A DNA stretch of 62,473 nt, the filler included, from Sphacelaria rigidula (taxonomy: Eukaryota): assembly GCA_964200075.2 (NCBI GenBank). It is 7 parts of 7 records of this genome, joined end to end, with 100 filler letters (N's around TTAATTAATTAA, not from the genome) between each part and the next. Parts side by side here need not be neighbours in the genome. Positions count along the whole stretch, not along the records: positions 1 to 8,839 come from CAXNAA020009972.1; 6 more parts are not named here. One strand, 5' to 3'. The notes below the pieces were generated by a model, which worked only from the letters and a program-made list of their open reading frames with translations, did no database searches and was not told the DNA's origin. Numbering within the stretch: the stretch's first letter is position 1; each line of letters opens with the position of its first letter. Shown in pieces: positions 800 through 57,928 of this stretch. The translations under genes were made by a program, and so were the position numbers.

Positions 800-1100
800 A
801 AGACACCCATGAGGCAGTGTGGAGTCAGTGGCTGTATCTGAAAGTAGCGATACCAGATAATGAAGCAACTCATTGGAGGCTGCCATCCAAATGCGAGATA
901 ACCAGTACGCTTCGGGACGAACAATATTACTTGGCAGGATCCAGCTTACTCTTCATGCGACTCGTCGAACACATCACAGCGCTTCGCGGTTGGTGATGGA
1001 TTCCGGGCCTGGTCCGGCGAAACCCGGCGTGCTCCGTCCCGGCTTTGTAGGGATGCGAGATCAATGGTCATATGACTACCGCATTCAAGATCGTGAGTAC
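800..1100 (+). mobile_element. Poly-C-targeting non-coding retroelement, long form, 5'-truncated
   Basis: Homologous to 19728-20284 (reverse); ends ...gatcgtgagtac followed by a C-rich tract. Confidence 0.8.
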
Positions 1101-5971: not shown

Positions 5972-6143
5972 CTGCATTTCGTCGGCGCGAAATAACGACC
6001 GAGAGTATAAATTGCAAGAACAGACACAAACAAAAAGGCCAGCGTGACAAGACAGTACAGGGATATTGCGAAAGCCGATGATGAGGGATAACACAATTTT
6101 CGCGGTTGCACTGAATTTGATCACCCCCCCCCTCCCCCCCTCT

Positions 6144-6221
6144 GGAGTAGGAACGGTGCTCCGTCTCGAAAGTGATGCGTGGTCAATGGTCACGTGACTG
6201 AGGCAAGCAACAAATGAGTAC
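6144..6221 (+). mobile_element. Poly-C-targeting element, short subfamily A
   Basis: ggagtaggaacggtgctccgtctcgaaa...caacaaatgagtac, flanked on both sides by ccccccctct. Confidence 0.85.
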
Positions 6222-8344: not shown

Positions 8345-8600
8345 CGCCAGCGAAAGACTCCACACGTAGGACGCGCACGAGTATGACTCGTGGCACTTGC
8401 AATCGATGGGCTGCTCGTTGTGGAAACACACAGTAGGGCGAGTACTCGAGTCATTGCTCGTTGTGGAAAAAAATAGTAGGGCGAGCACTCGAGTCATTGA
8501 GTGTTTTGGAAAAAATAAATAGGGCGAGTACTCGAGTCATTGCTTGTGGTGGAGAAGTAGATGGCTCGAGCACATGAGTCATTGCTCGTGATGAACGACT
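8345..8600 (+). repeat. Dispersed repeat with ~40-bp tandem units (tagggcgagYactcgagtcattgctcgttgtgg)
   Basis: About 5 units here; same head and units at 35940-36670. Confidence 0.8.
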
Positions 8601-8761
8601 TGAGTGGAGGAGTCAGGAATTCGACGAGCAGATAATTATAATGGGCTCTTCGACGATCTTGAACCTAAAATCTTCAAGTTCATATGCATATCTGCACATG
8701 TTCAAGCGTCAGGCTCCAAAGCTCGTTTTCATTTTACTCCCCCCTCCCCCCCCGACAGAAA

Positions 8762-8821
8762 CGTCTCGAAAGGGATGCGTGGTCAATGGTCAAACGACTA
8801 AGGCAAGCAACAAATGAGTAC
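8762..8821 (+). mobile_element. Poly-C-targeting element, subfamily A, with a 16-bp TSD
   Basis: ccccccccgacagaaa at 8746-8761 and again at 8824-8839. Confidence 0.9.
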
Positions 8822-8839
8822 GCCCCCCCCCGACAGAAA

Positions 8840-8939: not shown

Positions 8940-9636
8940 CTCGCACTCAATCACCCAGAGCGAAGCGCCGTGGTGTGTTCTGTAATGCGTGAGAGGACCG
9001 CGTGCTTAGAGGACCGCGGCGTAGTCCAAAACACCCCAGGATCGACATCTTTTTACACCAATTGGGCCAGTCCCTGCAGGTACCACGCCCCTGACCCTAA
9101 CCCCAACACTAACCCTAACCCTAACCCTAACCCTAACCCTAACCATACGGATATTCAATTTCAGATGCGGTCCTTCAAGCACGCGGTCCTCTCACGCATT
9201 ACATGTTCGGCGAGTCGCATGAAGGGTGAGCTGCATCTTGTGAGGATTGTTTGGCCCGAAGCCTACTGATTATCTTGCATTCGGATGACAGCCTCCAATG
9301 AGTTGCTTCATTGTCTGGTATCGCCACTTTCGGAGACAGCCACGGCTTTTACACTGCCGCATGGGTGTCTCACCACTGAAGCACCACGTAGAACGATCAT
9401 CCCTATTGTGCGGAGTCGAGGATCTTCCACGCCGCACAACATGATACGTCCCGACTACCATCACGGTCACCGCGAAAGAAACTTGAGCGTGCAAAACAAA
9501 TCGGGAACCTGATTGCCTAGCTTACGCAATGAGTGGCATGTTCTATAGCGCCATCGCCAACCGACGCCAGCCCCAACGGGGGTCCGCCCCTACGAAGCCG
9601 GGACGGGGCACGCTGGGTTCTCGCCTGAGCAGGCTC
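8940..9636 (-). mobile_element. Poly-C-targeting element, long form, interrupted by a MITE and cut by the contig start
   Basis: Colinear with 19822-20284. Confidence 0.85.
8981..9203. mobile_element. MITE with TGT..ACA ends, ~37-bp TIR, 5-bp TSD (TGTTC) and internal (CCCTAA)n
   Basis: TIR TGTAATGCGTGAGAGGACCGCGTGCTT; the empty site gtgtgttcggcg is visible in the paralog at ~19855; copies at 11083-11287 and partial at 16894-17000. Confidence 0.9.
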
Positions 9637-17949: not shown

Positions 17950-17980
<31 letters not shown>

Positions 17981-19425: not shown

Positions 19426-19628
19426 TGTGGAAATGAACAGGATGGATGGTGCATGACGTGTGTGTGAGTTTGTGTGTGTGTATGTGCGTAGTCGGTATCT
19501 TTGTTTTGGGGCGTGTCGTGTACATCATAGTGCACTTCCGGCATTTGGAATCCCCAAGGAATTACTTGGGAAGCTGTGAAGCTAAAGATGGCATGGGCGG
19601 GGAATGATACACGGAGGTGGTAGTGGGT

Positions 19629-20284
19629 GTACTCATGATCTTGCATGCCGTAGTCAAAAGACCGTAGACCTCGCATGCTTGCGAAGCCGGGACGGAGGAC
19701 GCCGGGCTTTCGCCGGACCAGTGGGGAGTACTCATGATATTTCATGCCGCAGTCATATGACCCTTGACGTCGCATCCCTACAAATTCGAGACGGAGCACG
19801 CCGGGTTTTCGCCGGACCAGGCTCGCAATCAATCACCAAGCGCGAAGCACCGTGGTGTGTTCGGCGAGTCGCATAAAGGATCACTGGTGTCATGATAACA
19901 TTGTTCGGCCCGGAGTCTACTGATTATCTTGCATTTGGATGACAGCCTTTAACGACTTGCTGTACGATCTGGCATCGCCACTTCCAGAGACAGCCACGGC
20001 TTATACACTGCCTCATGGGTGTCTCACCATTTACGCACGACGTAGTACGATCATCCGCATTGTGCAGAGTCGAGGTTCTCCCACGCCGCACAACATGATC
20101 TAGCTCGACCACCATCATGCTCACCGCAACAAAACGCAAGTGCGCAAAAAAAAACGTAATCTGGTTGCCTGGCCTACGCATGGAGTGGCGTGTTTAATAG
20201 CGTCATCGCCAACCGACGCCAACCCCATCGGGGGTACGCCCCTGCAAGCCGGGACGGAGCACGCCGGGTTCTCGCCGGACCAGG
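19629..20284 (-). mobile_element. Apparently full-length long-form poly-C element (19728-20284) plus a tandem extra 3' module (19629-19722)
   Basis: The 5' ~39 bp (20246-20284) is directly repeated at 19783-19821; both 3' modules end TGAGTAC plus a C-rich tract. Confidence 0.85.
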
Positions 20285-20297
20285 GGAGGGGGGGAAC

Positions 20298-20425
20298 GTA
20301 CTCATTTGTTGCCTGCCTTAGTCGTTTCACCATTGACCACGCATCCCTTTCGAGACGGAGCACCGTTCCTACTTTTATTAGAGACACCTCCAACATTCCG
20401 GCGCTCATTTACGTTTATTTCATAC
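20298..20425 (-). mobile_element. Poly-C-targeting element, subfamily A (longer copy)
   Basis: Shares its 5' extension with the 23597 and 26205 copies. Confidence 0.85.
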
Positions 20426-21072
20426 ACTACACCAAAACCGGTCACATATCTTATCCCCGTCCTGTTTCGCCGTCTGCGGCCACAATTCATCTCCTGATAT
20501 CACCATCGCTTTTTCGCTACTGTCTAGTGCTCATGACTCCAGAATTTAAGTCTCCCGTGTCACTTGAAATATAGGAGCGCGGCTGCGTCACACGAAACGT
20601 TGCACGCACGGCCCAATTTGACGGCTCTTGAGCTGGAATTTCACAAGACCCTCTGCACCCAAGAAAATGATACATTGCGGGGCCAGCTGCCGTTTCTCGA
20701 ACTTTTCCTGAACCTGTGACGTCATCTTGTTTTTGCCTAAATTTCAAATCCCCATACCTTCCTTTTCTCTCTTTTTTTCTTTGCTGCTCTCAAGATGTTC
20801 TGCATGTCGATCACAATAAGCTGCTGTCAAAATTTCAGCATTGAACTCCTAATTATACGCTGGACGTCGCCTGAGCGAGAAAAGTACTCGCTGTTGCCTG
20901 GCCCAGCTCGTGATTGATCGAGCAACATATGTTGAGGGAAACGTAATAGATCAACCCACACAGCACATGAAGCATTTCAACAAAAAGTTTTTGAATCAGC
21001 AGGTTTCTAGGTAGTCAACATCGTCATGGCGCGATGTATTTCCTACTTTCAGTAAGGAGAACAAAACATTAC

Positions 21073-21198: not shown

Positions 21199-23596
21199 CT
21201 GCACTGTTGCGCCGCGATATGAGGTTCAAACGGTTTGGAAAAAAAAAAATGTCGTACAAGGTGACGTTTTGGTCCTTTTCGAGTGGTAGCGCTTCAAGTT
21301 TCACCATTTTATTTTCATCACTCGACGTTGTCGTTAACTATTACTGTTGTTATTGTTGCTGCTGCTGCGGTTTGTCTGTGTGTTTTTTCATCAAGAGGTC
21401 CAACCCTTTTGAAACCGTTGATGAAAAAGTGACGATTTACAACTGATGTTCTCTTGGGCCAGATATGATTGTTTTCCTGCAACTGTTGATGCGGCCACCC
21501 AAAACGGTGCATCACTCCAAGTTCAAGTACACTCATGTGACGGATTCGTGCACCAACTCGAATAGTGACTATTTCCCGGCGACGAAAGCTCGCATACGGC
21601 AGTTTGTACTGTTTTTCGCGAGTTCCAAGAGGGTTAATGCAACCGTAAGGCAAGCAGATTACGCATCACGCAGTGCGTGGCCCGGTCACCACGACGCTCG
21701 ACTCTCAACAAACAACCATGCGATGTACCCGAAAATGCTGGAACACGGAAACCGCGTGATGTACCCGAAAATGTTGAACGACGAAAACCCTCAACACGCC
21801 TGTTACCAGCTGCACTAGCTACAGGTTACTAGCTTAAAGGCAACAAACACGTGCCATTACACACCATTACCCTCATGGCATTCAAGATTCGATGCTAAAC
21901 GAACGCACAGACGTATTTTCGGTACCAAGTTCCGTGAGATACTCACATATCCGTTCAGGGTGATAATGTAAATACCCACACTACTTCGTCCAAAACATTC
22001 GTGTATAGATAGGGCTGGGAACTGGACTAGTTTATACTGTCGATCAAACTGGAGCTGGAGATAAACTGAAACTGGCGACGAAGGCGCCAACCTTTGCCGT
22101 TAAGGCTATTTTTAAACCAATTTTCGTATAGTGAGTTTACAACACATGTGCTCAAACCATGACATTCAATTTGACTGTACAAATGAAGTCTGTACTTCAC
22201 AGCTGCAGAGGAAAATATGGGGTATCAATATAGACGCAGGGCGCTTCGAAGGCGTCGACGGAAATTGTTCGCGTCAATGACGCGTGAGGCAGCGGTGCAC
22301 AGCTTCGTGCTTCGTTTTGCGTGTTTCGGACGACTTGTACAGCATCGATCTGGCGTCCTGTGGTAGTACCATAGCACATGGAAAACGGGTCTTATCCTGG
22401 CCCAGTCACTAGCTGACAACTTCAGGTGTTTTCAGCTTCCTGAACTGACCCGTCTGCTTCATTGGTACCTCGTGGTTTTGCAGTTTTCCGTTTTTTCGGC
22501 CGCAGCGTGTAGGTCCACGCCTGCTCCGTCGAACAAAAAAACCAAGGAAGAAAAAAGAGTTGTGGCTTTCATGTGCGGCGGGACGCTTGATGCGGAACTG
22601 CCTAACGGCAAACCCCAACTGCCAGTTGCCCATTGCATGATGAAGAGCGGTTTGAACACGATGTAGCACATGCTCACTACACCTCGAAATAATAAAGCGG
22701 ATATATGCCGGGGTTTGTCATTTCATTGCAAAACAGCCGAGAACGAAGATAATAAACGGTAACCCGTGACGACGAAGTTGAAACACACCATGGCTTGCTG
22801 TTCAACTACATGAGTGTTTGTCGGCCCGGACGTAAAAAAAGTAGCGCTCTTATCCCCAAGTACTACCAACCTTGCCTTCTTTGTTCCCATCCATCAACCA
22901 CTCCTTACGGACAGTATTTTCTGCTGCATACTGTAGATGAATGATTATGAATCGCTCACCGCTTGGAGTGGGAGTTTGGTGTCATCTGAACGACCAGAGT
23001 TCTCTATGCAAGAGGTCACATTTTTTACAACCATCCATGTTTTTGAAGGGAGACAAGCCGAGTAGCGGAATTTTTTCCGCCTTCGACGGCGCTCCAACGA
23101 GGCCCCCTCACCAGCTGGGGGGGGGGGGCGTGGGGACGAGCAGCTTCGCCGCTAGCTGCCCACGTTTTTCCAGTTGATCCGTTCGTCGATCAAGTGGAAA
23201 ATAATGGATTTGCTGGCCGTGTCGGCGGCCAGTTTAAACTTGGCTGTTCAACCTTAACTGACCGGAGCTGCCAGTTCACAGCCCCATCTGTGTATAAATG
23301 ATCGCGCATCATGTCAATTTGCATGATAAACCTGAGCAATCGGGATGCCCCCCCGACATCAATATTTTTCCCCTACTTCTTCACTTGGTCTTAGTCTAGT
23401 CTGCTGTTGAGTTTCTCCTCTTCTATTTCATTTTCCCTGAGCGAGTATTTGAGTTTCGTTCTTGTCTTGTGCACTGACCAAGGCTCTTTCCCTGAGGGAT
23501 CTCTCAAAGTGCGACAACCAATCCATCAACTAAATCCGTCAACCAACTCACTGCCGCTAGAAAGGGGATGACATACATAGAAGCTTCTTTGCGTAA

Positions 23597-23723
23597 TATA
23601 TGGAAGAAACGTACTGAGCTCCCAAATGCTGGATGTGTCTCATATGAGGAGTAGTAGGAACGGTGCTCCGTCTCGAAAGGGATGCGTGGTCAATAGTCAC
23701 ACGAAGGCAAGCAACAAATGAGA
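23597..23723 (+). mobile_element. Poly-C-targeting element, subfamily A
   Basis: Family sequence followed by a C-rich tract; no TSD seen. Confidence 0.85.
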
Positions 23724-25556
23724 ACGACCCCCGCCCCCCGCCATCCCTCTACTTGCCGCCAAGGCCTCGACACTCACGTGGTGCCTTCCCCACACCTACT
23801 CCGCTGCCGCCGCTCGAAGTTCCCTGAGGGTGGTTGATGTACACGCGCCGAGCAGAAATCGCACACGGATCACCATCACGAAGAACATTCCAGCTACGCT
23901 CACAGGGCTTGTTGGACCTAAAAAATAAAATAAAAAGCCGCCGACTGTTTCCAGCCTGCCCGTTTTGAGACCAAGCTTTTTTTTTGTCCTTCCAAACGCG
24001 AAAAGACGACGAGGACGATGACTCGCTCGACACGTCAGCAGACAAACGGAACGACGGACGAACTCCCGGGGATGACGTCGAAAGGAAGGTGATCGTGCAC
24101 GCTTCTTTCTGCATTGTACAAAAATTGTAATGCCGTGCCGGGTATAGCATACCCGATATTTTGATATAGTGAAAAAGTCGCACATGACCTACCCAAGCCC
24201 CTCGCGGTGACTTGCATGGGCTTTAGGTAGGGGAACAGCGGCACTGGTCTGCCTGCTGCTGTTGGCATGGTTCGGATCTCCACTTCTCAAACACAACAGT
24301 ATCGGGTATACTCTACGCGACCCGCCCTTGAAAAAAAATGACAGATTGCGTGGAATGACAGACCGCACAATTCCACTTCCAAGTGCTAATACGGACCGAT
24401 ATAACTTTACGGAGATGGGGCAGAAACTCACTTGACCTTCTGACGTCCTCAGGCAACACCATCATACCCCTGCCCCTCCCCGCTCCCTCCCCCTAACCCA
24501 CACCATCGCCCCGCGTGACCAAGTATAATAGTAATGCTCATGATTGATTCATTCATTGATCGACCGACTGATTGTGTCACATCAAACGATCCGCCACACT
24601 AAAGGCACCACCTAACCAAACGTGAACACACGGAAACACTTTGGAATGAGCTCCCCTCAATTCAAGGAAAAACGAACAAGCACGAAATCACACCCCTCCT
24701 GTGGACAAATTTGTATCCCTGCATTGCACAAAAAGAGCGCACGATTGCATCACGTCACCACGGAGAATACCATCCAAATCTCACGAAACCCACGAGTCAC
24801 GGTCAACGAAACGCCTCCCTCTCCCTTGCGTGTTGGAAGATGGAGCATACACCACCCTTCGTTTGATACACACGCAACAGAAAAAACGGTCGCTTTACTT
24901 GAGCTCCGTGTCTCGAGAGTAAAGGTGGGCAGCTATCTCTCCGCCTCTCTAGTTCCGACAACACGAGTGAGGAGTGTCGTCAAAGCTCAAACGGCCCGAC
25001 TCCTCATGCAGACAAGCGAAGGCGTTTTCCGAAGTGAAAGTCGAGCGATCCTGCCTCTCGTCTCCGCTATGTCGAATGCAACATCTTTGGGTTGACAGTA
25101 CAGAGGGTATTCACAGGTCACCCCTTGCCTACACACACAAGAATTTCACTGCGCGGGTCTCAAAAAGTATCGTTGTTTCGGAGATATATAGCGACGATAC
25201 AACTCTGAACTGCCTCCCTCTTCATAAACCCCCCCTTGCAGCTCTGGAGTTCAAGATGTTGAGTAAGCACCCCCTTCACACCTGATATTTTCCATCAACC
25301 CTTCGATGAGCGCTCGCAAATAAGCACGTTAGTCTGACAATTTATTATCCAATATTATATCAAGGCCAAATCAAATAATACGACACATCTGGATAGCCAA
25401 AGTTTCGGAAAACACACTTGCACCCGCCCGTATAACCGTCATGCCACCTGCGAACCGAACACTCGCCGCCGCCCTTCCACCCACCCTGTGCGTGTGCATC
25501 GAAATTTCCTGCAACATCACCATGTAGCCACTACAATCGCCACAACTGATGCTCAC

Positions 25557-26024
25557 CTCCCCAGTCTTCTGCCCTGCACCATCACCCACCCCGCCCGCTG
25601 CTCCACCCTCGCCCCCAGCAGCGGCCTTAAGCGGCGTACTTCCCCACGCATTACTTCCACCCTTCCCGCCGGCGGCCGCAAACGACGTGAACGAGGAAAA
25701 AGAAGGCGCCCCGCCGGCGGCGCTCCCGAACGACAGCGTTGCGGGGGGCGCCGCCGTTGACGCTGGCTTCAACAAGGAAGTCGGCGCCGACGACGACGTC
25801 GAAGGGAACGCCGGTGTTGCGAAGGAAGAGCCGCTGGTATTTGTGGAGCTCGGCGCGGTGCTGGCCGTCGGGTGTGCCTCGGTTGTTTTCGCCAGTCCGT
25901 TTGTCGCTGCCGTGGAGGTGATGCTGTCGCTGCCGCTAGTGGAGCTGCTGGTTGCCGGGGAAGAGCCGAAACCAGCGAAGGTCAGGGGGGGCGACTTCGA
26001 CGCAGCTATCCCTGTTGCCAAGGA
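25557..26024 (-). CDS. FG/S/T/A-rich exon of a nucleoporin-like protein (Nup50/Nup2-like architecture together with the downstream RanBP1 exon)
   Basis: accag|SLATGIAAS..LTFAGFG..LSFG..PSFSSFTSF..QKTGE|gtgagc; 156 codons, phase 0-0. Confidence 0.8.
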
Positions 26025-26204
26025 CTGGTGGTGTTGTTTAGATAGCAGCGGCGGCGGGAAGGAGGGGGATTAGGACTAGGGCGGCGGCAGCAGCGGATGG
26101 GGAGCGCGAGGGTAGAAGAGTGATTATGACTTCTCGGTGATGACGTTTTCCCCTTCCCGCCATACTGCCAATGTCCTCCGCCCGCCGCCCCGTGAACGTG
26201 ATGA

Positions 26205-26330
26205 GATATGGAAGAAACGTAATGGGCGCCAGAATGTTAAAGGTGTCTATTAGGAGTAGGAACGGTGCTCCGTCTCGAAAGGGATGTGTGGTCAATGGTC
26301 AGACGACTAAGGCAAGCAACACATGAGAAC
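26205..26330 (+). mobile_element. Poly-C-targeting element, subfamily A, TSD ccgccgccccgt
   Basis: The 12-mer occurs at ~26182-26193 and ~26338-26349. Confidence 0.85.
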
Positions 26331-26665
26331 GCCCCCCCCGCCGCCCCGTCATTTCCTCCTCCGGCCTCGGAATGAGCCCGTGGTCCCGACATATCAATCC
26401 ATTTCTCCTTTTGGTGACAGCTTGCCAAATCGATTCGAGCAATGGATCAGCACTCTCGACCCCAACGTCGACTTCTGTTCACTTTTCGTGAACTCACTCC
26501 AAATCATGGGTCATCACGAGGGGGAAGTACAATAAGACACTAATGTATGCAGTCCGTCTCCACATGCAAGTGATGGGGCAAAATCCACGGTGCTACCACC
26601 TGTCACCTACGGTTAACAAAAAATAAAATAAAATAAAATAAAATAAGCAATTCCCCCCCCCCCCA

Positions 26666-26717
26666 CGATGGTAGTCGAGCTAGATCATGTTGTGCGGCGT
26701 GGGAGAACCTCAACTCC
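26666..26717 (+). mobile_element. 5'-truncated long-form poly-C element starting right after a C run; cut by the contig end
   Basis: Matches 20067-20117 in reverse. Confidence 0.75.
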
Positions 26718-27367: not shown

Positions 27368-27589
27368 GCCGAGATAGCCCCCCCACAAAAAGTACACCGG
27401 ACACCATCCAACGAACCGGCTGCGATCCCACTGTTGGNNNNNNNNNNATGAGAGGCGTGTAGCAGTCCGAAATCAGCTATAACGCCCAAATGAGTCGCGT
27501 CGTGCAGCACGAAACCAGCTTTAACGGCAGTTGTGATCATCGCCTCCGTGCACGTTTTTGGCCGGTTTGGGGGGGGGGCTATCTCGGCA
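27368..27589. mobile_element. MITE with TIR GCCGAGATAGCCCCCCC, related to the 250-bp MITE; contains a real 10-N gap
   Basis: gccgagatagccccccc ... gggggggctatctcggc. Confidence 0.6.
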
Positions 27590-27864: not shown

Positions 27865-28115
27865 GACACTTTCTAAGATAGCCCCTCCCCAAAACCAGCC
27901 CAAACGTGCTACGAAAAAAAGGGCCATACAGTGCCTGATGTTTGGGTTCAGGCTGGATGAAGCGCCTCATATTGGCAACATTGGCGAGAATGAACCCAAG
28001 CGTGGGAGTTCCCAGCTGCTCGTTGTGCTCGGCTTTTCTTATTTCGATTCACGTGAAGATTCCGCCTCCTAAAACTATGCACTTTTTTGGGGGGGGGGCT
28101 ATCGTAGAAAGTGTC
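27865..28115. mobile_element. 250-bp MITE with perfect 4-bp TSD CCCA, nested at the centre of a foldback (~27810-28185)
   Basis: ccca|gacactttctaagatagcc ... gctatcgtagaaagtgtc|ccca. Confidence 0.85.
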
Positions 28116-30822: not shown

Positions 30823-32799
30823 GGATTCTGCAACCGCGTTGCTCTACAGAAGTATTGTTCCACAGCCTCACCGCGAAGCCGGTTCTCAACACAGCCACGG
30901 CGGAAGTGGCCATACGAGGTGTGATAGCGGGTGCAGACGGGATGAAGCGCCTCGCATGGGCGCTACTGGCGAAAAAAACCCAAGCGTGGGATTAACCCTT
31001 ATCCCCGTTGTGAGTGTCTGCAGATTTATTGATTGTGGGGCATCCATTTTTATCCAACTGACGGTTGTCCTGTAGTGATGCTGTGTACTCTGGTGATGGT
31101 ATATCTCAGCAGACTGCTGAATGATGCTGTGTGTCAAAGATCGCTGGCGTCTGTCGCCGCATTAGATCGTTTCGCTGACGGCGGTCGTCGCCGGCGCAAC
31201 AGTATGAAGTCTCTCTCAGATACTCAACAACAGGCGCTCAAAACCTCGACGACTAGTCCAAATAAGTATGTTTCCAGCATGCTTTGTTACGTGTTCCCTA
31301 GGGCTTAGACGCAGGTCCTGCTCAGAAACAAATGCCTCACAATCGATCACGGCGGGTTTTTTGTTGAACTGCTCATCATCATGCTTGCCCTGCCGTGCAG
31401 ACACTTCTGGGTGAGGGTTACATGGTCTGACCCGGTTGCGAATTCCGAGCCTTTTGGATGAAGCAAATGAAATTTCGATGGTCCGTTGAACCTCACACCC
31501 ATGTTGAACCTCAGAAACGAACCCAGGCTGTTATAACATAACGGAGCTGACCCCTTTCTTTCTTCCAACCTGCCGTAACACAACCCGGACACAGGCATGA
31601 AATTACGAAGACCAACCATCCTTCCCCTTCAACATACCATGACATAGCCTGAGCATAAAAAAACATGGAATGACGGCACAATCCACTATTTTCCTTGAAC
31701 CCACCATAAAGCATAGCCTGGAGATGAACATCAACTGGCGAAGCTAGCCAAGGGGGAAGAGGTATACCAGCAGTCGAAAGGAGGAGGGAGTACATGCACA
31801 GGATCGGCCCTGCGGCAACGCATTAGAGAATTGAACTCATACGTATAATCGCACAGCTATTGATTTATACAAAAGAAAAAACATCGACGACAGTGGTTGC
31901 GTGCACGGACCATATCTACACGATGCAGCACGGTAAACACGACGTATATGAGTCTGTACCATTGACCAGCGCGGGTTGGTCCTCCTCCTCCCGAGGGAAG
32001 TGGCCAAAGTTTCTCCTCCACCTGAGTGAGGTGATTCTTGGTCCACCTGCTTGCGAGGAAGTTACCACCCCATCGCGTGTCCTCCGCGTGGTGTCCGGTT
32101 CCAGTCAGGGCTGTCCGGTTGCGCATGGGGGTGTCCGGTTCAAGATGAGTTTATCCCGTTCCACAGGCGGTCCGGTTGCAGATAGGGCGATCCTTTTCCG
32201 GAAAGGGTTGTCCGGTTCCAGAGGGGGTTGTCCTTTACCAAAAACGTGTCCATAACCCAAGGGGGCCTCTAACCTGCGACAGGGCTTTTGGATATAGATC
32301 TTGGCTCTGTCGGTCTGATTACAGTGCTTGACTTTCATGTGAGAGTTGGCAGTAAAAGTTCTGAGTTCCACATGCTGGGCAGGTGAGAATTAATAGTAAG
32401 GTTTTGAGTTCCACATGCTCGACATATGATAATAGTGCCGATTTTGATATGGCCCTTGGTTCTTTGCTGATTCAGTCTATTGACAGTACTTGAGTCCATG
32501 CGATAGTTGGATAGGAAAGGTTCCGAGTTGTACATGCTTAACGGCTGATCACGGACTGAATGTTGCTCATTGTTGATTTAGTCTGCTCACATTATACGTG
32601 AGTTCATGTGCGCGTCCGGCAGTATTTTCGGGTTCTTGTCGGGTCGACTGTTGATGGCGTGGTTCCCGGGGAATCATTCGTTGCTTGGTAGACGGTTGGG
32701 TGTTGTGGTCAGAGTTTCGTTTTGGTCCTGCCTTCTGACTCTCTTGGGTTCTTGGTGTGAGGTAACTATGCATGTAAAGTTGGTCCCTGTTGTACGGTC

Positions 32800-33332: not shown

Positions 33333-33581
33333 GGTACTTTCGACGATAGACCCCCCCCAAAACCAGCCCAAAAGTGTCACGATACAAATGACCATACAGC
33401 GCCTGATGTTTGGATTCAGGCTGTATGGAGCGCCTCATTATGGCGACATTGGCTAGAACGAACCCAAGCGTGGGGATGTCCAGCTACTCGTTGTGCTCGG
33501 CTTTCTCATCTCGATTACCGTGAAGATTTTGCTTCCCAAAACCATGCACGTTTTTGGGGTGGGGCTATTGTAGAATGTGTC
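33333..33581. mobile_element. 250-bp MITE copy
   Basis: Same TIR and body as 27865; flanks agct/agtt. Confidence 0.8.
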
Positions 33582-37510: not shown

Positions 37511-37516
37511 TGCTCT

Positions 37517-37575
37517 GTCCCGAAAGGGATGCGTGGTCAATGGTAAAACGACTAAGGCAAGCAACAAATGTGTAC
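37517..37575 (+). mobile_element. Poly-C-targeting element, subfamily A, heavily 5'-truncated
   Basis: Followed by a ~21-nt C run. Confidence 0.85.
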
Positions 37576-44695: not shown

Positions 44696-44906
44696 AAGAT
44701 TGTTCGGCCCGAAGCCTACTGATAATCTCGCATTTCGATTACAGCCAATAATGAGTTGCTATATTTTGTGGTATCGCCACTTCCAGAGACAGCCACAGCT
44801 TTTACACTGCCTCACCGGTGTCTAGCCAGCGGGGGGAGGGGGGGGCGTACTCATTTGTCGCTTGCCTACGTCGTTTGATCATTGACCACGCATCCCTTTC
44901 GAGACG
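44696..44906 (-). mobile_element. Subfamily A copy (44846-44906, TSD tcccccgctg(g)cta) abutting a long-form fragment (44696-44824)
   Basis: TSD seen on the plus strand as tagccagcgggggga / tagcagcggggga. Confidence 0.85.
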
Positions 44907-47900
44907 TAGCAGCGGGGGAAAGATGGGTTGAATCCGTTGAGATGACGGACATACCATGAGGAAGGGGGCGCGTGAACAAAAATACGACAACAAGAAAAAA
45001 AACTAGCGACTGCCCTTACCCTGCCAGTATTGAAGCCAACTGAAGATATATGCATTTTTTTCACAAGTATGTGTCCAAATCTCGAAATAGGTTATTGTGC
45101 AGTGCACTACTCACTTGACGAGTTGCCCTAACGCGACCTTTGCTTCCAAAGCACCCACTAGCTCCCCCCCATCGGTGTCAACGGTCAGCAGGTGCTCCTC
45201 AAAGGTCACCGTTAGCCCTGACATCCAAACCTGATCACAAGAAGGAGGTAATCAGACACGATCTCGACACTTCATCTCCCACGGCAATTACTTCGAGCGG
45301 ATCGAAAAAATGGAGCATGATCCTCAATCACGACAAGACCTTCAGGTCGAGCAAGACTATGGAGGCAGCGTAGACTACGAGGGATAGCAACCCCCCCATA
45401 TCGAATTCCAAACCTTATCCTCGATCCTTTCAACGGGAAATATCGTGAAAAGCACAAACGACCCCGTGCACATCGTACGCTAGGGAATGTATCACCCCTT
45501 GGGGCGAGAACAAGCCTAACCCAAAACCTTGTTTTTTCTCGCCGAACACGGCAAGCCACGCTGCCGAGAAAAGCAAAGTTGGATGTATGCGTTCGGAATT
45601 TTTCATCAGTTAACATGACCTCATGATCGACGCACAGAGTCCTTGTGGTATTACGGGATCTTGCCAATGGAGGAGATCGACGTTGAAGATTTTTCATCGC
45701 TCCCGATGATGAACTCTGGCTGATGATCTACAGTGTACACACATCTTGATCCAATGACATGTTTTATATTCTGATAAGGACACAAGCGGCGGCGTCACGA
45801 GCACCGTACGACGCCCCCTAGTCATGAGCATCATGAGTTATCGGTAGATATCATCATAAGCCGGTGGAAAACAGTTGATCGTATTCCATCACCAAAAAAA
45901 CGGCAGGACTTGTTTCGCCACCTGCTTTCGAATTCGAGTTGGTCCACGTTGACATACTACCGTGTAACGTACAGTAGTCACGAGTACTAGCATGCACATC
46001 TGAGCAAGAGTCGAAAATAGCGGATACAGTGGGTACCTGACACTTAAGCCAAACGTTTGGAGTAAAGAATCCGACTTAACCAGGAAAGGGCTACGAACAT
46101 CCGTTCACTACCCGGTGGCACAAAGTTCGGACAAAATATGAGGATGCAGTCAAAATATCCTGCACCAGCGTCACCTCGATCAAGGCGCGACAACAGAAGA
46201 GCCTCCAGTCAGCCAGCCAAGGACAGGACACGCCACGTCAACACAGTTCCAACAAAGCCCACAGCAATCCACATTTTCACATCCTCGGGGAAACTTTAGC
46301 CGCGGTACACCGATGTACACACAGCGTTTACTCGCTCACTTGATTGGTGGGGGTAACGGCAACGCAGTTCGAAAAACTCAAAGACTCTCCTTTGTCTTCG
46401 GAACTTCAGATACCGGGAGCACAAATGCTGATACCTACGAAACTTCGAAAAAAACATGTCGTACAGTGGTTCTCCTTTGTCACAAACTCAGAAGTTACTC
46501 TTCTTGTAAGTGGGGAAGTGAGCACACAGCCGCTATTCCTGGCATTTCCTACGCGCCTTTGAATGTGGTGAAAACGGCCATACATTTGCGCCTCTGCAAG
46601 TGATGCATCTTTCCAAAACTGCCGGCTCTGAGTCTGTCATTGTTAGAAGGCAAACAGTACATGTATCAAGAAGATGGCCGCACAAAAAAACACAGTAATC
46701 TGAAGACATCGCAAGGATGGGCAGATGGACAGAACGATACTTGAACAGGTTGTAGTACTACACGAGCTAGCCGTCAATTTCTCGTTTTATACCTCGATAC
46801 TCCTACACAAGTCGATTGACGCTTCAAAGCGCAGAATGCAGCGCGATATTGCAGCACACTCACAGACTTGTTTGGTGGGGCTTCGACCGTAATCGTGCCC
46901 GTAATAGGCGAAGCCGTGTCCAGGAGAGCACAATGCCGCTGGAAGACCTGCCTAGGCACCAAGGACAGAGACAGTGTATCCATCCACGTTCGCTCGGCGT
47001 CCACCTCTATCAATACCTGCCGGTTCGCCGATCACAACCAGGATTGGGAAACGGTGCTTACTATCGTTTCCCTTGGGTTTTCCTACCGGGGCGAATCCGT
47101 AGTCTCTCTAGTAGTCTCTCGAGGGATCGACTCATAGCTCTCGCGGCGCTTTCCTTACACTCTCTCAATATCTATAGATGATTCAGCGTTCCTCTCGGAG
47201 TCCGTCGAGTTACGTTACATCTCTCATGTCTTCCCGGTGACTCTCGTTCTCATGGTTTTGGTGCGTGGAAGCCAGACGAAAAATAACAACTCTACTGACG
47301 GCATCGATTATAAACCTCGCCAAAACCCGTTCAAACCAATGTTGTCGGTTACGTGACACGCATATTTTCCCGGTCCGAACGTGGAACGCACATGACACCG
47401 GAAATCGCCGAAACTTTCAATTCTCGGGCCCCCGGGGATCCCCTACTCCCCACTTCACATCAACTGATTTCGGGGCCCCTTTCAAACGTAAAAACTTAGA
47501 GCGTACACGGCAGCGGCAGCAGCAGCCGACACGGGCAGACCACGGCGTCTAGGTCATGGGGATCGCTGCCCATGAGCCTGGTGGGTTTCGAGGAGCGCGC
47601 AGCACTTCTTGCGTCTGCGACCTTAGGGATTTTGCCGTAACAGCCGTACCTAACTCCAAAAGATTATTTTACGTGGTTGCTCGTAAGTGACTACCTCAAA
47701 CGACCGTAACCGACGCCATTGATTCAAATTAATGTTGACGTGCATGAAACGTTTGCCCACAGGGCCCGGCGCCAGCGCCAACAAAGCTGCGCCCAGCATT
47801 TTTTCTTTTTTTTATCGCCACACCCTCAATCCTTTCTCGTCGTCGAGACGACTCCGTAGCGGCGAGGAATTCATTCACGTCTCCCCAGGTACATTTCTTC

Positions 47901-50981: not shown

Positions 50982-51078
50982 GTACTCATGATCATGCATG
51001 CCATAGTCATGAGACCATCGACCTCGCATCCCTACAAAGCCGGGACGGAGCACGCCGGGTTTTCGCCGGACCAGGCTC
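50982..51078 (-). mobile_element. Poly-C element 3' module (subfamily B); no C tract at this copy
   Basis: gagcctggtccggcgaaaacccggc...tcatgagtac. Confidence 0.85.
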
Positions 51079-51312
51079 GTGTCCGCAAAATCAACGCTGA
51101 GGCAACAAAACCCATAGACGCGCAGTCTAGCAGGAGCACACCATGAAGTTCTCTCTCTAACCGTATTGATGAAAAAAAGCAAACACACGTATACACGGGC
51201 ACACGTGAAAACAAAATATGATGCTAAAAAATACCATCAGAGAGCCGGGAACACCGCAAGGGTACAGTACTTAATGCCGACAACAATCCCCTCCCCCCCA
51301 AAAAACACTGAC

Positions 51313-53702: not shown

Positions 53703-53953
53703 CTTGAATTAATAGCATAAAAAAAAAGCAAATCAATGCGAATAATCTCACAGAATATTTTACCTACGGTGCCCAGTAGCCTGATCCCTCTATAACCCCT
53801 GGGTCAACATTGTCTCTTTCCTTGAAAAGGTCCACTACTACTCCCCACCTCTTGGGTGTGTCCCTGTTTTCCCAGATTTGATTAAACTGTACAACATGAT
53901 CATCATAGTGATAATTCCTTACCCCCCGTACTTCACACGGGGGGGGGGAGGGG

Positions 53954-54033
53954 ATACTCATTTGTTGCTTGCCTTAGTCGTTTGACCATTGACCACGCAT
54001 CCCTTTCGAGACGGAGCACCGTTTCTACTCCTT
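53954..54033 (-). mobile_element. Poly-C-targeting element, subfamily A
   Basis: G-rich tracts on both sides; degenerate TSD. Confidence 0.85.
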
Positions 54034-56250: not shown

Positions 56251-56347
56251 GTACTCATGATCTTGCGTGCCGTAGTCGTATGGTCATTGACCTCGCATCC
56301 CTACAAAGCCGGGACGGAGCACGCCGAATTTTCGCTGGACCAGGCTC
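56251..56347 (-). mobile_element. Poly-C element 3' module (subfamily B) with a degenerate TSD
   Basis: Flanks cacgtacagggg / cacggacaaggg. Confidence 0.85.
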
Positions 56348-57928
56348 GCACGGACAAGGGAGGGAGGGGGCAGGGGCAGTGACTGCTGAAGAGGATGGTG
56401 TTCTGGGGCACAGTACTACAGTCAACAAGTCAGAATAATATGGGAGACACGGAGGCATGCGGTCGTCCTTTTTTCATCGCGCTGCAACAGGAAAAAAGGC
56501 CGACAAAAGTAGTTTTGTTGTGGGTGCTGTCGTCTATCGTGTTGCTTCCCATGATGTGGGATGTAGTCCGTTCCTTGTGTCGACGTGCTTGATTTTCAAT
56601 TTGTTATATATTTTCAATCATGCGCCTTGTATGTACGTGCGCGTTACCATGTCTTCAAACAAATGACATGCGATAGTCGTCTGAAACTGGAGTAACTGAA
56701 TCGCCAGTAGTAGGTATCCTGCAAGTATTGTCCAAACGGTGAGTACAGCAGTGCTGTCTTTATGGCAGACGTGGTGATGTAGTACATTTTAAAGACGAGA
56801 AAACAGTGGCACGCAGTTTTTCTATCGGCTCGGGAAAGAATACTGTACCGGGAACATCCTCACATACGATTTACTCTTTCCATCAACCAGTAGGTATGTG
56901 TATTGTTTCATAGGTGACTTGCGATACGAGGTGCGGTTAGATTTGTTCCCAAGATGTCAGTTTTTTTTTGTAATTTTGTAATATTGTGGCTTTTTGCTGT
57001 TTTTATTGTACTGTAGTAGATAACGAGCAGATACTGTGCCGACTATATACATTTATTTTTCATGTAAAGATATTTTTTTATACTCGTATGCGTGTTTCCC
57101 TCTGTTGGTATAGTTGTCTGTACACTTCTTCCAGCGGATTGAGTGACTCATTTTTACTTCTTCCTATGAAGTCCTTCTCTCCTCTCTTTTCATGTCTTTC
57201 AGTTGGTCTCCCCTGCATAGTATCATGATGTTTGGCTCAATGTCAACTGCATTCCGCATTCCGTCATTCGGTTGGTATGGCGTCCCTGGTAGATTTAATC
57301 TCTGTGCCCGGCTCGCACTATTAATACTGCTCATGTGCTTGTTCTGCTGAATATCACTGTGCCGCTTACCGTGTTGTGCTCTGGGCTCGTGTGTATTCAT
57401 TTTTTACATTGACATTGGTGAATTGCTACTGCTGCTGCTTTCGGGGGGAGGGGGGGGAGTTGGTTGTTGCAGACTCAGCATGGAGAGCACACATATATGT
57501 AGTGTAGTGACATCCTTGGTACGGTCGCACTATATCATATGTGCACGCAGGGCCAAGTTTAGCCTGAACGTGAAATAAATCGCGTTTTGCGTTAGTGTTT
57601 CACATACGTACGAGTTGCGGTACAGTGTTTCCGCTCCGCTTTTCGACTTCTAGGTGACAAGGCAACGAAACTTTTGACACGGCTAGCGGGGTTGCGGACA
57701 ACCACACATACCCTGTCGCTTTCAATTCCTGGGACACAATACAGTAAAACATATAAGGCCGACTCGATTTGTGCCTTGGCTGTATTTTCAATCGTCGCGG
57801 GAGGGGGGGGGGGTTGCATGTCTACGTACAGGCTGCCATAACAGAGGATCTTGGAAAATGGGAACGACTTGTTATTATAGAAATGAAGAAATAAGATGGT
57901 GGACGTAACTGTGCGAAATGGTATATAA

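Follow-up and report, generated by a model that had tools for sequence, protein, structure and literature searches.

Short C-tailed repeats of Sphacelaria rigidula are very probably the 3' ends of an RTE-X-like LINE and copies of a non-autonomous partner

Several LINEs have a 3' tail in common with a SINE, as is the case for RTE (Bov-B) and its SINEs and for the eel pair UnaL2/UnaSINE1. In human L1/Alu, the poly(A) tail pairs with a T-rich nicked target. Membership of the RTE-X clade is defined by the placement of the RT domain in a phylogeny or by a best match to Repbase RTEX. In Ectocarpus, RTEX-1_Ec32 and RTEX-2_Ec32 are curated as LINEs of 5.5-5.9 kb, with the description "single EN-RT ORF; (C)n 3'" and a TSD that is "C-rich" (PMC12477816, Genome Biol 2025). 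The accompanying entries include RTEX-N2 (188 bp) and RTEX-N1 (607 bp), a non-autonomous element that can occur in tandem and whose 60-bp 3' end is 83% identical to RTEX-1/RTEX-2 (PMC12477816). Further, RTEX-N1 is given there as the top single family in Ectocarpus, its more than 6000 copies amounting to 2.48 Mb (PMC12477816). The unclassified repeat 'Sower' was described as the most abundant Ectocarpus repeat, at about 2.5 Mb (PMC3145265), and, judging from the like size and rank in these descriptions, RTEX-N1 is probably the old 'Sower'. RTEX elements are reported in Saccharina too (PMC4421812).

We analyzed a stretch of 62,473 nucleotides of Sphacelaria rigidula (GCA_964200075.2; hereafter, the window), which consists of seven contigs of 8839 bases with spacers of the form N44-TTAATTAATTAA-N44 between them. 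The best explanation of its short C-tailed repeats, and one that we regard as highly likely, is a LINE of the kind curated as RTE-X together with a non-autonomous element of 559 bp (hereafter, N), the two having a common 3' tail, and it is matched by the Ectocarpus descriptions (PMC12477816). The window LINE and its relatives have the single EN-RT ORF, the (C)n 3' end and the C-rich TSDs described for RTEX-1/2_Ec32, and the likeness extends to thousands of copies that are mostly short and 5'-truncated (PMC12477816). N in turn resembles RTEX-N1/N2_Ec32 as described: it is non-coding and non-autonomous, about 600 bp long, has C-rich TSDs, occurs in tandem and is of top abundance, and its LINE homology is limited to the 3' end (52-59 nt at 78-83%, against about 60 bp at about 83% in RTEX-N1). 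The lengths differ, however, N having 559 bp, RTEX-N1 607/604 bp and RTEX-N2 188 bp, and the 301-bp and about 95-bp forms of N described below are not among the RTEX-N table entries examined (PMC12477816). Compared by their descriptions, the window elements may be the RTEX-1/2/N1 families themselves or sister families in a related alga. A preliminary description, made from the sequence of the window, had taken the repeats for an unclassified family; a LINE/non-autonomous pair with (C)n tails is already known in kind, the Ectocarpus RTE-X and RTEX-N elements having been curated, and novelty is not supported (PMC12477816).

That description had reported about 17 pieces in six of the seven contigs, as one non-coding family with subfamilies A and B. 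When the window was searched with the 21-mer GGGATGCGTGGTCAATGGTCA, allowing up to three mismatches, 13 matches were found, against none in 100 shuffles. Blastn with the longest copies recovered 19 pieces, namely nine 3'-terminal pieces of subfamily A, two internal LINE pieces, which matched the longer LINE reference only, and eight pieces of subfamily B or its longer parent N. The 3' module was present in six of the seven contigs, and contig 4 contained only an internal LINE fragment. The repeat family is thus real, but it comprises two distinct related retroposons and not one non-coding family with two subfamilies.

The 3' end was preserved in 14 copies and, as had been claimed, it is fixed: all 14 end in GAGTAC with at most one mismatch, 10 of them exactly and four with one mismatch (GAGAAC twice, GTGTAC and GAGTAT). 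C-rich sequence followed 13 of the 14 preserved ends; the copy at 50982 was the sole case with neither a C run nor a C-rich 3' flank. Among the 12 bases past the first downstream base, we counted 9-12 C in each of the nine A copies and 10, 8, 7, 7 and 4 C in the five B copies. The earlier statement that a C run follows all but one copy was right as to the exception at 50982 but holds loosely, because the longest C stretch behind three of the B copies was 3-4 consecutive C. The window contains 69 C/G runs of at least six bases, of which 12 are element tails and 57 are not. The 5' ends, described as ragged, were so in subfamily A, whose copies measured 58+, 60, 60, 65, 78, 79, 137, 167 and 232 bp, but not in subfamily B, whose 5' ends fell at three discrete places, at about 93-100, 301 and 559 bp.

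From the sequence comparisons that follow, subfamily A is the terminal 3' part of an autonomous LINE with one ORF for EN and RT, of which the window holds dead pieces of 58-232 bp. The preliminary description had seen no ORF, had considered the whole family non-coding and non-autonomous, and had proposed that copies be extended in the search for one with an RT ORF. A scan of metagenome contigs with a 20-mer yielded 73 loci, three of which (L013, L021 and L054) were true copies, and such an ORF was reached in L013, a marine metagenome contig. Here, a 681-aa frame, open at its 5' side, passes through the A module and carries Pfam RVT_1 (E=2.8e-33). The frame ends in ...NGAPSRKGCVVNGQMTKASNK (with more of the C-terminus, ...GGVSIRSRNGAPSRKGCVVNGQMTKASNK) and the stop, which is the TGA of ...AAATGAGTAC and is followed by GTAC, one G and C8. 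The stop of the LINE ORF therefore sits 4 nt before the element end (...AAA TGA GTAC). L021 and L054 have the C-terminus and C tails as in L013.

Full-length relatives of the L013 ORF were found in the proteins P0002 (1360 aa, 90% identity) and P0003 (1328 aa, 77%), which end in the C-terminal peptide of the L013 ORF. Both are annotated with PF03372 (Exo_endo_phos) and PF00078 (RVT_1), and P0002 with PF14529 too. The LINE thus encodes EN and RT in one ORF and has almost no 3' UTR, and the A module corresponds to the last 17-75 codons of the ORF plus its stop. When P0002 was compared with the window by tblastn, eight of the nine A copies were matched, within aa 1286-1360; the copy at 44847-44906 was not among the matches listed. 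Since the EN-RT ORF terminates in the A module, the A pieces are extremely 5'-truncated LINE copies, and subfamily A is the very partner that had been postulated, in place of a non-coding dependant of it.

Within the window, Pfam searches of all 200 stop-to-stop ORFs of at least 90 aa found no RT or EN domain (0/200), giving only six sub-threshold chance matches in five ORFs. The link between the window and the LINE is drawn from the three metagenome contigs, one contig of a bacterial MAG and the database proteins. The bacterial-MAG contig (L074) was the only match when P0002 was used to search for a full-length LINE locus in the viral_contigs set (0 matches) and the genome_contigs set (1 match). 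It is a 7-kb contig of a Sulfitobacter MAG with a 5'-truncated LINE copy of about 335 bp and a C tail at 349-690, and probably represents algal DNA that was placed in the bin of an associated bacterium.

The other 70 of the 73 metagenome loci (L001-L073 minus L013, L021 and L054) were rejected as element copies, being unrelated, bacterial-looking coding sequences that share a motif by chance. They share ATGGGATGCGTGGTCAATGGTCC, which in these loci we take to be the IspG/GcpE motif MGCVVNGPGE; its likeness to GCVVNG in the LINE C-terminus is a chance coincidence of nucleotides and peptide. A further protein, P0004 of Ectocarpus sp. CCAP 1310/34 (1927 aa), combines the C-terminal third of the LINE ORF with Gypsy-type RT/RNase H and other domains, and its C-terminus, ...NGAPSRKGRVANGQMTTASNK, matches the LINE ORF end. 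The LINE tail has here given rise to an annotation artefact, a chimeric gene model.

The copy from which the preliminary description started is a 60-bp, 5'-truncated LINE 3' end on the plus strand (8762..8821), 98.6% identical to the L013 LINE over 69 nt. Its sequence comprises the codons of the last 17 aa (SRKGCVVNGQTTKASNK), the stop and GTAC, with G and C9 behind them, and it aligned with P0002 aa 1344-1360 by tblastn. The flanking repeat described there was confirmed as a 16-bp TSD, CCCCCCCCGACAGAAA, with its 5' copy at 8746..8761 and its 3' copy at 8824-8839, the contig end. The local order at 8746-8839 is CCCCCCCCGACAGAAA, then CGTCTCGAAAGGGATGCGTGGTCAATGGTCAAACGACTAAGGCAAGCAACAAATGAGTAC, then G CCCCCCCCC GACAGAAA, then the spacer. 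Just upstream, about four tandem copies of a unit of about 47 bp (...tagggcgagtactcgagtcattgctcgttgtggaaa...) lie at 8400-8590.

Four other A copies lie on the plus strand. A 78-bp fragment (6144..6221) is followed by A and C13 and has the TSD CCCCCCCTCT at 6134 and 6229; one of about 137 bp (26194..26330) has a tail of G and C5 and the TSD CCCGCCGCCCCGT at 26181 and 26337; and one of 65 bp (37511..37575) is followed by G and C21, with a weak TSD (CCCCAATA vs CCCCATTA). The fourth, of about 167 bp (23559..23725), is old, ends in GAGAAC and has no clear TSD. On the minus strand, the longest copy (20298..20529, 232 bp, about 83% identical to L013) encodes P0002 aa 1286-1360 and abuts element N; no TSD was found in its flanks. 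A copy cut by a contig end (44538..44595, C12) is 100% identical to L013 over 67 nt. A 60-bp copy (44847..44906) with a tail of G and C8 has the TSD CCCCCGCTG(G)CTA at 44907 and 44823, its insertion point lying just upstream of a B copy. A 79-bp copy that ends in GAGTAT and has a C-rich tail (53954..54032) was found by both blastn and tblastn, and is adjoined by an internal fragment of the RT region on the same strand (53744..53935, P0002 aa about 698-763). The second internal fragment, the sole piece of contig 4, was found by blastn at 31757..31839 on the plus strand (84 bp, 80% identity), and tblastn with P0002 gave a weak match at 31760-31873.

Element N is present in full length at 19728..20286 on the minus strand (559 bp), and its 3' 301 bp correspond to subfamily B. 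A second N copy, cut by a contig end, lies at 8940..9633 on the minus strand; the two align over about 430 nt from a common 5' end, with 81% identity. This second copy contains a 223-bp MITE (8981-9203) whose 27-bp terminal inverted repeats (TGTAATGCGTGAGAGGACCGCGTGCTT) are perfect; the MITE has what looks like a 5-bp TSD (TGTTC) and, at about 9095-9140, a telomere-like run of CCCTAA inside it. A fragment on the plus strand (26664..26716, N positions 168-220) is cut by a contig end and preceded by C12 (26653-26664). The 301-bp form occurs at 801..1100 on the plus strand, where it starts with (A)GACACCC, has the 3' flank ACCCTCCGCC and shows no clear TSD, and, as a 5' part that blastn found cut by a contig end, at 44696..44823 on the minus strand; both copies (801; 44823) have a discrete 5' start. 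In translation, the two 301-bp forms showed stops in all three frames. The short form occurs three times on the minus strand: at 19629..19721 (93 bp), head-to-tail behind the full N with TCCCCA between; at 50982..51079 (98 bp), the copy whose 3' flank is not C-rich; and at 56251..56348 (98 bp), with a long C-rich tail and the TSD TGTCCGTG vs TGTACGTG, preceded by C's.

The first 41 nt of N repeat a module at -94 to -55. This 41-nt module (CTGGTCCGGCGA(A/G)AACCCGGCGTGCTCCGTCCCGGCTT...) occurs twice in N, at the 5' terminus (20246-20286) and about 55 nt before the 3' end (19787-19826), and again at 1008-1045, 51037-51075 and 56306-56344; it had no match in Rfam. Because the first 41 nt of N repeat an internal module, the short forms (93-100 bp; at 19721, 51079 and 56348) start at one place, and they look like a 5' module fused to the tail, not random truncations.

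Homology between N and the LINE is limited to the last 52-59 nt of N (78-83% identity). This common terminal stretch upholds, for subfamily B, the dependence on a partner RT proposed in the preliminary description, and, on these alignments, N would presumably be copied in trans by the LINE protein, the two forming a LINE/parasite pair with a common 3' tail. The SINEs of Bov-B and UnaSINE1 similarly keep only the terminal tens of nucleotides of their LINEs. Unlike in the Bov-B or UnaL2 pairs, the tail here overlaps the coding end of the LINE, and the terminal repeat is (C)n. The core of the common tail is GGGATGCG-GGTCAATGGTC. The stretch of the LINE tail is conserved although it is non-coding in the parasite, implying that the RT recognizes the 3' end of the RNA. 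A consensus fold of the last approximately 100 nt of 11 copies gave no convincing conserved structure (-5.5 kcal/mol, 14 pairs, 1 compensatory).

We scored TSDs by local alignment of each 5' flank with each 3' flank, down-weighting C:C matches because C-rich flanks match one another by chance. A score of at least 12 was reached by 4 of the 12 true pairs and by 3 of the 132 mismatched pairs (Fisher p=0.0009), and a score of at least 10 by 5/12 and 9/132, respectively (p=0.002). The TSDs, 10-16 bp long in 4-5 of the 12, were clearest in the youngest copies; a convincing TSD was absent in 7 of the 12 testable copies, mostly older or nested ones. All five TSDs listed in the preliminary description (8746, ~26182, ~44846, 6134 and ~56251) are present, and its reading of the fixed 3' end, the 5' truncation and the variable TSDs (p=0.0009) as signs of target-primed reverse transcription is sustained.

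Its view that the C run is simply a tract that pre-existed at the target is not supported, given C's that lie outside the TSD. Between GAGTAC(G/A) and the TSD, we counted about 1 such C in the copy at 8762, 5-6 in those at 6144 and 26194, and 8 in that at 44906, and the copy at 56348 has at least 20 C-rich bases before its TSD starts. These extra C's indicate that the (C)n tail belongs to the element. In the 5' copies of the TSD, the target itself began with C5-C8. Thus, a short (C)n tail is part of the element, its insertion sites are C-rich, and the C run consists of both tail and target sequence. We know of no way in which a C tail could arise by ordinary polyadenylation.

The repeat structure, the fixed 3' end, the C tails, the TSDs and the ORF that enters the module were observed directly; the G-run nicking, the C/G priming and the mobilization of N in trans we infer from them. 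An APE-type endonuclease would nick the bottom strand in a G run, and the exposed ...GGG-3' end would pair with C's at the 3' end of the RNA and prime cDNA synthesis. A second nick, 10-16 bp downstream, would then give a TSD that starts with C's, and early termination of the cDNA or loss of the template would leave the copy 5'-truncated. N would be copied in trans by way of the common terminal ~55 nt, which is conserved though non-coding in N. Priming from a G run on the bottom strand had been suggested before, and TSDs that begin with C's are consistent with it. The window LINE resembles L1/Alu in that a homopolymer tail would pair with a complementary homopolymer at the nick, and in that the TSDs begin with the tail base, so that tail and TSD cannot be sharply delimited. 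Unlike in L1/Alu, the pairing would be C/G instead of A/T, and the LINE is of another clade and has one ORF.

It is conceivable, though we consider it rather unlikely, that the (C)n tail arises, or is set, at the site of integration and is not copied from a transcript that ends in poly-C. The RT would then start where the G-run primer meets a short C stretch after GAGTAC(G/A), slippage would extend the tail, and the last ~50 nt would serve both as C-terminal coding sequence (GCVVNG...) and as the recognition signal of the RNA. The C-terminal motif ...GCVVNG... recurs in LINE families that are only 41-43% identical. Were the tail made at the site, the system would offer a natural parallel to that of L1, with C/G pairing in place of A/T, and the minimal mobilizable unit would be about 95 nt, the size of the short B form.

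Three other explanations compete with that of an RTE-X-like LINE and its partner N. We consider it improbable that the LINE lies outside RTE-X, in another or a new APE-type non-LTR clade that came to use a (C)n tail independently. Such a placement could be suggested by the Cys/His motif in the C-terminus of the LINE ORF (CPCG...H...C). However, among the Ectocarpus LINE/PLE entries examined, (C)n was given for the 3' end of RTE-X only, with (CAA)n for RTE, (CA)n for CRE and (A)n for Chlamys (PMC12477816). Further, proteins attributed to two Ectocarpus species belong to the 90% cluster of P0003, and the single EN+RT ORF with an almost absent 3' UTR also speaks against a different clade.

It is very unlikely that N/B is a true SINE, transcribed by Pol III, with a head of tRNA, 5S or 7SL RNA origin fused to the LINE tail. 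The discrete 5' end common to the N copies would agree with a SINE, as would the shortness and extreme abundance of N, and the Ectocarpus authors allow that RTEX-N1/N2 'could be SINE', leaving the question open (PMC12477816). On the other hand, ARAGORN found no tRNA-like gene in the whole window, although a diverged head would still be compatible with this, and Rfam gave no match at the gathering threshold in the whole window. When Rfam was searched at E<=10 on 19580-20560, the one match was to an sRNA at chance level (E=5.4), and no self-cleaving ribozyme (HDV-like or hammerhead) was matched in this interval. In the same Ectocarpus source, weak homology is described between the RTEX-N1 head and the RTEX-2 5' end, a relation that would fit a LINE with an internal deletion (PMC12477816).

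Least probable of all is the original proposal of one purely non-coding, non-autonomous family with two subfamilies, inserted site-specifically into poly-C with the whole C run belonging to the target: the window pieces are indeed short and without a long ORF, their TSDs begin in C runs, with C7-C8 already at the target in the 5' TSD copies, and free C tracts are common (57 of the 69 runs), but the EN-RT ORF of L013, L021, L054, P0002 and P0003 runs in frame into the A module and terminates there, the P0002 C-terminus matches eight of the nine A copies, C's outside the TSD follow the element end, and '(C)n 3'' is part of the description of the curated Ectocarpus LINEs (PMC12477816).

With the LINE of RTE-X kind and its partner N as the preferred reading, the apparently new, ORF-less retroelement that targets poly-C reduces to RTE-X-like LINE 3' ends and a partner element, a result that is mainly housekeeping. 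No repeat class is more abundant in Ectocarpus-type genomes than this RTE-X-like one, whose curation dates from 2025. In annotation, apparently non-coding pieces of 60-230 bp should be masked as LINE tails, and gene models that enter such tails, such as the chimeric P0004, should be distrusted.

The abundance of the elements was also seen when the reads of four public runs (X1, X3 and X4 among them) were aligned to contig 3. The element-bearing bins had the highest summed contig depth, 2.6e5 to 5.5e6 against approximately 50-130 in the lowest, apparently single-copy, bins; these sums show great abundance, not copy number. Loose ends at the 5' borders (20030 and 20284) and the 3' borders (19625 and 26339) fell at G/C runs. 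X1 and X3 each yielded 25-28 contigs with head-to-tail joints, and in the window the tandem arrangement is that at 20286-19629. No empty allele was seen on contig 3 in the four runs, none of the 15 listed joints (1406 further) skipping an A copy. Contigs of X3, and partly of X4, enter the insertions at 23559-23725 and 26194-26330 from their flanks; these insertions therefore seem to be common to the runs.

Other features of the window were noted. In a different repeat family, a run of C7-C10 lies internally, flanked as in ...GA(T/C)AG(A)-Cn-A(A/C)AAA... (27378-27384, 27569-27578, 28089-28098 and 33351-33358); this family is unrelated to the GAGTAC tail, and therefore not every C run here is an RTE-X tail. 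An exon-like ORF lies at 25374-26069 on the minus strand. At 17950-17979 there is a run of G30, or C30 when read on the minus strand, where ...GATGAGCCGCAATCCATT comes before it; the summed depth of its bin was roughly 10-20 times that of the lowest bins, and the run may be the tail of another C-tailed element.
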